A stretch of DNA of 959 nt from Escherichia coli (GTDB taxonomy: Bacteria > Pseudomonadota > Gammaproteobacteria > Enterobacterales > Enterobacteriaceae): the NCBI RefSeq assembly GCF_003334815.1, contig NZ_QOWO01000112.1; one strand, 5' to 3'. Shown piece after piece: positions 1 through 959 of this stretch. The position numbers and the translations under genes are program-made. Below the pieces are notes generated by a model. That model was not told the DNA's origin. It was given only the letters and a program-made list of their open reading frames with translations, and ran no database searches. The stretch's first letter is position 1. Every line of letters starts with the position of its first letter.

Positions 1-93
1 TGACCGCAGCGGCGAAGCGTACCCTTGCATCCCTGCCAGCCCGGCTAAGATGGAGGCACGGCACAGCCCGCACACGACACGGCGGCCACATAA

Positions 94-126
94 CTGAAAA
101 ACCACAAGGCCATGCCCTGCATGGCC
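94..126 (-). terminator. Second hairpin with T-rich tail: possible backup terminator or RNA 3'-end structure (tentative)
   Basis: Seen in sequence: plus-strand GGCCATG (108..114) / CCCTG loop / CATGGCC (120..126) form a perfect 7-bp stem. On the minus strand it is followed by TTGTGGTTTTTCAG (complement of 94..107). The T-run is separated from the stem by GTGG, so it is weaker than a canonical terminator. No U-tract follows it on the plus strand (GGGTAAAGCGG). Confidence 0.35.
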
Positions 127-181
127 GGGTAAAGCGGAGCCGGCGGCGACGTCCTTTGTGCTCTGTCCGGGGACCGGCAGG

Positions 182-205
182 AAAAAGGCGGGGATTTACC
201 CCGCC
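182..205 (-). terminator. Rho-independent (intrinsic) transcription terminator for the minus-strand CDS
   Basis: Seen in sequence: plus-strand GGCGGGG (187..193) / ATTTA loop (194..198) / CCCCGCC (199..205) form a perfect 7-bp stem with 6 of 7 G:C pairs. On the minus strand the hairpin is followed immediately by TTTTT (complement of A-run 182..186). It starts 7 nt downstream of the TGA stop. On the plus strand the hairpin is followed by AGTGTCATCATTTCC, which is not a clean U-tract, so it is mainly unidirectional. Confidence 0.72.
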
Positions 206-212
206 AGTGTCA

Positions 213-959
213 TCATTTCCGGATTTTTGCCAGGGCATCCGCCATGCTGCGGATTTCGTTCCGGGCTTCCCGGACCACCTCCCGCAGAACACCACGGTCA
301 AACCAGCGGCGGGGCGGTTCATCCGGTATACGCAGCACATCCCAGGCCAGCCAACTGGACAGGATATGTTCAATACAATCGCTGACCAGATACATTTCCA
401 CCGCCGAAAAACGTGCGCCCCGGTTCAGGATGGCGTCGAGCACCACGGGCAGGTTTTCGTCGTCCTCATCGAGCCAGCAGGGGTGATCGCTCTCCTTCAC
501 GACCAGGCGAAAGCGGCGCGTCTGGCGGGTCAGTAACGTCTGACCGGTGGTGGTCAGCGCCGCCCGGATACGCCGCGTATCTTCTGCCACCTGGTAACTG
601 ACACAGCGTACTGCATCGCGTACCGCATCAAGAACTGCCCTGATTTCGTCCTCTGCCAGCCACTCACCGGCATACGGGAAAGACACCTGCGTTCCGTCTG
701 CCGGAAGTACCGGCAGCGACTGCCACTGACTGCCGGACAGTACAAGTTCCGCCCCGGTTCCGGTCAGTTTGTGAATGGCGGAGGCCAGGAGCGGCGGCAG
801 TGCGCCGCCGTGACGGTTGATAAGTAACGTCGCCAGCCGGGGCGCATCCAGCAGAACATAAATGCTGATCCAGCCCGGATGGTTCGGGTTCCGCTGGTCA
901 ACATCCGTCTCTTCCGGCCAGCCCTGCGCCAGCAGCAGGTTGCGGGCGTGACGACAAAT
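213..959 (-). CDS. Hypothetical protein of unknown family, C-terminal 248 aa; 5' end of the gene lies beyond the window edge
   Basis: Seen in sequence: the minus-strand frame is open without any stop from 959 down to TGA at 215..213 (248 codons; an open run this long is improbable by chance even at this GC content). Codon first positions are G-enriched and codons are typical enterobacterial (CTG, GCG, CCG, CAG, GAA, GAT, CGT, CGC). The translation is protein-like (...[29 protein letters not shown]...[17 protein letters not shown]...[33 protein letters not shown]...[25 protein letters not shown]), and an intrinsic terminator follows 7 nt after the stop. The GTG at 686..684 used by the ORF track is preceded by only a weak SD-like GGAA and the frame and codon pattern continue unchanged upstream, so the true start is probably outside the window. 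Product family not recognised. Confidence 0.8.

Follow-up and report, generated by a model that had tools for sequence, protein, structure and literature searches.

The gene on the minus strand of the window (the whole 959-nt stretch of Escherichia coli DNA analysed here, from contig NZ_QOWO01000112.1) is ychA, alias yubG or ngrC (phrog_8919), a 258-aa leading-region gene of IncI/IncF-type enterobacterial conjugative plasmids. We show that its translation starts at an ATG located 30 nt past the window and that the GTG at 686, which is listed as the start of a shorter open reading frame (ORF), encodes the internal residue Val102. The interpretation as a 258-aa ychA read from this ATG is held with very high confidence, and the operon membership and early expression proposed below are inferred for it.

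Extent of the reading frame and its start site

The minus-strand frame is open from 959 down to a stop codon at 213-215 (given as TAA/TGA in the translation from 959), so that codons 11-258 and the stop of ychA occupy positions 213..959 of the window. Its translation from 959 to 686 is exactly the peptide quoted in the original prediction, which had described this part of the frame as stop-free and protein-like. In the ORF list for the window, the frame appears as a 157-aa ORF at 213..686 (minus strand) with a GTG start, because the true ORF runs past the window edge. The start of the 157-aa ORF is a window-edge artefact, and the start site itself is already known, with the 258-aa gene model being present in RefSeq for thousands of plasmids; the 157-aa call for this window should be discarded.

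The absence of stops at 687-959 is by itself weak evidence of coding, being also observed in 649 of 5000 dinucleotide shuffles (13%; 64% GC), whereas the complete 248-codon open frame was reproduced in none of 2000 shuffles. Across the GTG, GC content by codon position stays alike (0.71/0.48/0.71 in the upstream part and 0.69/0.45/0.68 in the downstream part), in agreement with the shared codon pattern that had been noted there.

For extension beyond the window, we used plasmid pE2863-1 (locus L001), which is 100% identical to the window over L001 positions 6001-6959. Many plasmids of enterobacteria show the same complete identity; the matching plasmid records number at least 5000, come mostly from Escherichia, Klebsiella, Salmonella and Shigella, and the majority of them are predicted to be conjugative. 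Past position 959, the ORF gains 10 codons (MNENTTLNAL) up to an ATG at L001 6989 (window-equivalent 987-989, minus strand), which results in a full-length ORF of 258 aa. The gene thus leaves the window, as had been claimed, although by only 30 nt, and a good start is reached before any stop. This ATG is the first ATG/GTG/TTG downstream of an in-frame TGA located 16 codons upstream, and no further in-frame ATG, GTG or TTG occurs between codons 1 and 102. The RefSeq/PGAP CDS WP_001005043.1, a hypothetical protein, is the same 258-aa ORF (window-equivalent 213-989); the window product is identical to it over the part covered and differs in lacking the first 10 codons, which bears out the statement that a 157-aa call would truncate the gene.

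The two start codons differ in their potential for ribosome binding, as judged from how strongly the 3′ end of the 16S rRNA would pair with the bases 5′ of each codon (anti-SD pairing). The sequence 5′ of the true ATG is CAGGGAGAACGATTAATC in L001, and its GGGAG pairs at -8.2 kcal/mol, which is among the top 3% of positions in the gene. For the GTG (684..686, minus strand), which follows GACGGAACGCAG, the value of -3.5 kcal/mol ranks at the 39th percentile of gene positions and is hence background; the original prediction had likewise seen no good Shine-Dalgarno (SD) sequence there. Both GGGAG and ATG are kept in all eight DNA copies compared. The seven diverged copies have 91-95% DNA identity and come from IncFII, IncFIA, IncFIB, IncI1 and IncI-gamma/K plasmids; in each of them, the annotated CDS begins with the homologous ATG and encodes a protein of 256-258 aa.

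Conservation, selection and structure upstream of residue 102

An exhaustive homologue search, which covered 1.84 billion cluster representatives, found full-length relatives at 27-65% identity. These have 254-275 aa, their alignments begin at residue 1-8 in either protein, and residues 1-101 are conserved in homologues as distant as 27-30% identity. In the diverse family alignment, M1, W24 and P25 are invariant, and the window's product has the N-terminus by which the family can be recognized, MxxN(T)TLNALIxRH...GWP, in a protein of about 255-275 aa. Among 16 close homologues, no variation is seen at residues 16-24 (RNLLLAQGW) or at many other positions in 1-101, and Val102 sits within a conserved block, TQV(S/F)FPYAGEWL. 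In distant members, position 102 is occupied by V, I or L. Two distant homologues have an SD sequence of their own: L010 (30% identical), in which position 102 is Leu with a CTG codon, possesses its own ATG, a GGAGG SD sequence and an in-frame stop 5 codons upstream, and in L012 (47% identical) a stop lies 2 codons before the ATG. As the original prediction had implied, conservation continues N-terminal of residue 102; the relatives share the start, and none of the homologue families starts where the GTG lies.

Selection on the two parts of the gene was compared in the eight DNA copies. Codons 1-101 have a pN/pS ratio (Nei-Gojobori) of 0.25 and codons 102-258 one of 0.29, and the variable sites at the three codon positions number 4/8/25 and 21/11/43, respectively. 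The codons upstream of the GTG are therefore coding and, like the rest of the gene, under purifying selection.

An AlphaFold2 model of all 258 residues, built from a 17-sequence alignment, has a mean pLDDT of 89.2 and a pTM of 0.83. One half is modelled with helices at 5-21, 49-59 and 66-75 and strands at 29-31, 41-48, 81-86 and 100-103, and the other half with a helix at 113-145, two beta hairpins, a helix at 180-190, a further beta hairpin and a helix at 232-257. The part of the N-terminal alpha/beta half that lies in the window (codons 11-101, 687..959, minus strand) mostly has pLDDT values of 80-96 and belongs to one compact model, in which residues 1-101 form an integral and confidently predicted portion of the protein. 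A hydrophobic segment of membrane-helix length is not found in the protein (the maximum Kyte-Doolittle 19-residue window is 1.4). YchA would be a soluble two-lobed alpha/beta protein.

Alternative start sites

These observations bear on three other possibilities for the start of the protein. That a 157-aa protein truly begins with GTG-686, the frame upstream of this codon being non-coding or a remnant, could be proposed from the window's ORF list and from the 13% of shuffles in which the 91-codon upstream stretch is free of stops. As the only start, however, this GTG is excluded by conservation, selection, SD sequence and structure, and we consider the proposal vanishingly improbable: conservation of the upstream part persists in homologues of 27-30% identity, its pN/pS is 0.25 with variation dominated by third positions, the GTG lacks an SD sequence, distant homologues have I or L at residue 102, the ATG is the start in all annotations examined, and the structure model integrates residues 1-101. 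It is also very unlikely, if somewhat less so, that two products are made, i.e., the 258-aa protein and a minor isoform from GTG-102 that corresponds to the C-terminal half alone. In the model, this codon falls between the strand at 100-103 and the helix at 113-145, near the junction of the lobes, and it is GTG in 8/8 close copies, although these eight are too alike for the choice of GTG to be informative. The anti-SD pairing at background level speaks against such an isoform, as does the lack of conservation of a start codon at 102, where L010 has CTG (Leu) and other homologues have I or L.

If translation began further upstream, at an ATG overlapping the stop codon of the preceding DUF1380 gene (TGATG), the product would be a 271-276-aa form (MLSPPALRAAIQGERLI-MNEN...) and the start would be translationally coupled. 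Large protein clusters are called in this way (P0009, 275 aa; P0018, 273 aa; P0055, 271 aa), and in two of the eight variants (L003 and L004) the upstream ATG, 17 codons before the ychA ATG, is in frame with no stop in between. Nevertheless, the longer form is impossible in the other six (the window's allele and five others), which have either no start after the in-frame stop or a TGA 2 codons upstream; it would also translate the intercistronic hairpin and the SD sequence itself, and PGAP annotates L003 and L004, too, from the start of the 258-aa protein. Because the extension is closed in six of eight variants, the 271-276-aa gene calls are probably over-extended, and we give the longer form almost no credence. 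The 258-aa protein that starts at the ATG past the window is hereafter referred to as YchA.

Family assignment

YchA matches phrog_8919 with an E value of 6.4e-137, its residues 1-258 aligning with positions 1-258 of the 259 in the profile. In all, 401 homologues were found, and members of the family are named YchA, NgrC or YubG in AFDB. It resembles other members of this family both in length and in its leading-region position between a DUF1380 gene and klcA. In a table of families that are significantly over-represented in leading regions (Samuel et al. 2024, Supplementary Table 1; PMC11541004), row 10 comprises 3,556 members, mostly YchA (but also NgrC, YubG and YfdA), which are classed as uncharacterised; KlcA and DUF1380 are found in rows 9 and 7 of the same table, respectively (PMC11541004). 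The YchA family is one of the ten most abundant leading-region families. A literature search for YchA, YubG and NgrC retrieved no functional study, the matches to 'NGRC' being unrelated acronyms.

Ten members of the YchA family in that table are labelled 'antirestriction' via an ArdA HMM (PMC11541004). A relationship between YchA and ArdA (PF07275) was considered and rejected, as Pfam gave no match and hhalign against the ArdA of the same plasmid gave a probability of 0.2%. In contrast to the DNA mimic ArdA, YchA is not strongly acidic (pI 5.73; 35 D+E versus 30 K+R), and its fold has no ArdA-like match. The simplest explanation for these few ArdA labels is fusion or mis-calling of ORFs. A relationship with KlcA/ArdB (PF03230) was rejected in the same manner (no Pfam match; hhalign probability of 0.9% against the neighbouring KlcA). 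The genes for YchA and KlcA are neighbours in the leading region and have the same orientation, but they would belong to separate transcription units, between which lie a terminator-like hairpin and a ssDNA-promoter hairpin.

Searches of Pfam, NCBIfam and PADLOC with YchA gave no meaningful match, a PDB sequence search with the family profile and a comparison of the model with solved folds gave none, and Foldseek against AFDB50 returned family members only. The two-lobed fold that is confidently predicted for YchA is one without a counterpart among solved or annotated structures.

Genomic neighbourhood and possible link with DUF1380

In pE2863-1, the genes on one strand are, in order, DUF1281, a hypothetical gene, a DNA methylase, a gene for a 73-aa protein (whose counterpart in L012 belongs to the YubE Pfam family), DUF1380, ychA, a klcA/ardB-like antirestriction gene and another DUF1380 gene, followed further on by ssb, a ParB-like gene, psiB, psiA, ardA and then the nikA/relaxase region. 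This stretch is the leading region of the plasmid. In pE2863-1 as well as in the distant L010 and L012, ychA is located downstream of the DUF1281/methylase/DUF1380 genes and upstream of klcA and is transcribed towards oriT, and a matching order (...ycgA/B-ychA-klcA-ycjA) has been described for an IncF33 plasmid (PMC10654068).

L010 and L012 are metagenomic contigs whose YchA homologues have 30-47% identity. The neighbourhood is kept in them as umuDC, DUF1281, (MTase, YubE), YchA, a gap of ~420 nt, KlcA and ArdA. In L010, the ychA homologue lies 365 nt after DUF1281 with neither a methylase nor a DUF1380 gene in between, so that it may have its own promoter there.

In the allele of the window, the DUF1380 gene and ychA share a reading frame and are separated by one TGA and 15 codons (L001 6989-7037). 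Fusions of the two proteins are present in databases (P0006, P0057 and P0109). In 418-aa fusions, the DUF1380 stop codon has been lost (read-through), whereas in 375-aa fusions, which are present on 5 and 15 contigs, a deletion joins ...NQAR to NLLLAQGW... through the shared motif QAR(N/T)LL. Judging from these sequences, such recurrent in-frame fusions suggest that DUF1380 and YchA are functionally linked and may act together.

A conserved 9-bp GC hairpin, ATCGCCGCC-loop-GGCGGCGAT, is located just outside the window (L001 about 7008-7029, minus strand; window-equivalent about 1008-1029), in the interval that separates the DUF1380 stop codon from the SD sequence of ychA. Its stem is identical in the eight variants and its loop varies (TCCG, TGCCCTGC or TGC). 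Since it is not followed by a U-tract, the hairpin does not qualify as a canonical terminator and might instead act in RNA stability or processing.

Proposed expression and role

The genes for the methylase, the YubE-like protein, DUF1380 and YchA are separated by gaps of only 0, 13 and 45 nt. Beyond ychA, a consensus scan predicted a GC-rich, terminator-like hairpin, GGCGGGGTAAATCCCCGCC followed by TTTTTCC, at 187..205 (minus strand), 8 nt past the stop codon. This predicted hairpin is likely to be an intrinsic terminator at the end of a methylase-DUF1380-ychA transcription unit. Because of the short gaps and the hairpin past its stop codon, ychA is probably the last cistron of this tightly spaced block, which would be closed by the hairpin and followed by the ssDNA promoter of klcA.

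All genes of the block run towards oriT, and for this reason the entering T-strand (the plus strand of the window) would serve as their template. In transconjugants of pESBL (IncI1), strong early induction of six leading-region operons has been reported, and the early-induced operons, driven by ssDNA promoters, include the ones beginning with M.EcoGIX (a methylase) and with klcA (PMC12672017). Considering the template orientation of the T-strand and these early-induced operons together, early production of YchA in the recipient is most probable. Its most likely role there would be to aid establishment of the plasmid or counter-defence, possibly jointly with the DUF1380 protein encoded next to it, but this functional reading is tentative and may well prove wrong. 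The same holds for the more specific proposal that YchA represents a new kind of establishment or anti-defence factor, early-acting and working with the DUF1380 protein. The gene ychA is very common in the leading regions of IncI/IncF plasmids, which are involved in the spread of antibiotic resistance, and its location near known anti-restriction genes and single-stranded-DNA promoters makes it a reasonable candidate for functional screening.

Elements between ychA and klcA

The intergenic region between ychA and klcA comprises 417 nt (L001 5796-6212), and window positions 1..156 (plus strand), outside the gene, form part of it. The region contains a 32-nt inverted repeat (L001 5832-5863 and 6039-6070), one arm of which corresponds to positions 39-70 of the window, and as single-stranded DNA it folds into a long hairpin with a z value of -4.3 on the plus strand (T-strand). 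On the same plasmid, a 355-nt copy with 94% identity directly precedes ardA (L009 817-1170), and therefore two matching places per plasmid record were obtained in the window search. Class 2 ssDNA promoters have been described 5′ of klcA and ardA, and transcription initiation from the single-stranded form was reported for pESBL by 5′ RACE (PMC12672017). Positions 1-156 of the window share with these promoters the large hairpin 5′ of klcA and the similar copy 5′ of ardA, and on this likeness they appear to match the published class 2 single-stranded-DNA promoter hairpin and to belong to it.

The Rfam family AS-pc01 ('Antisense to pHK01_035', an antisense RNA of IncFII plasmids) was also matched at positions 108-209 of the window (plus strand), opposite the 3′ end of ychA, with the full length of the model aligned through three hairpins. 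The score of 20.8 bits is below the gathering score of 79 and the match was judged to be hairpin-driven, so the candidate was rejected; it is probably a chance match or a very diverged relative.
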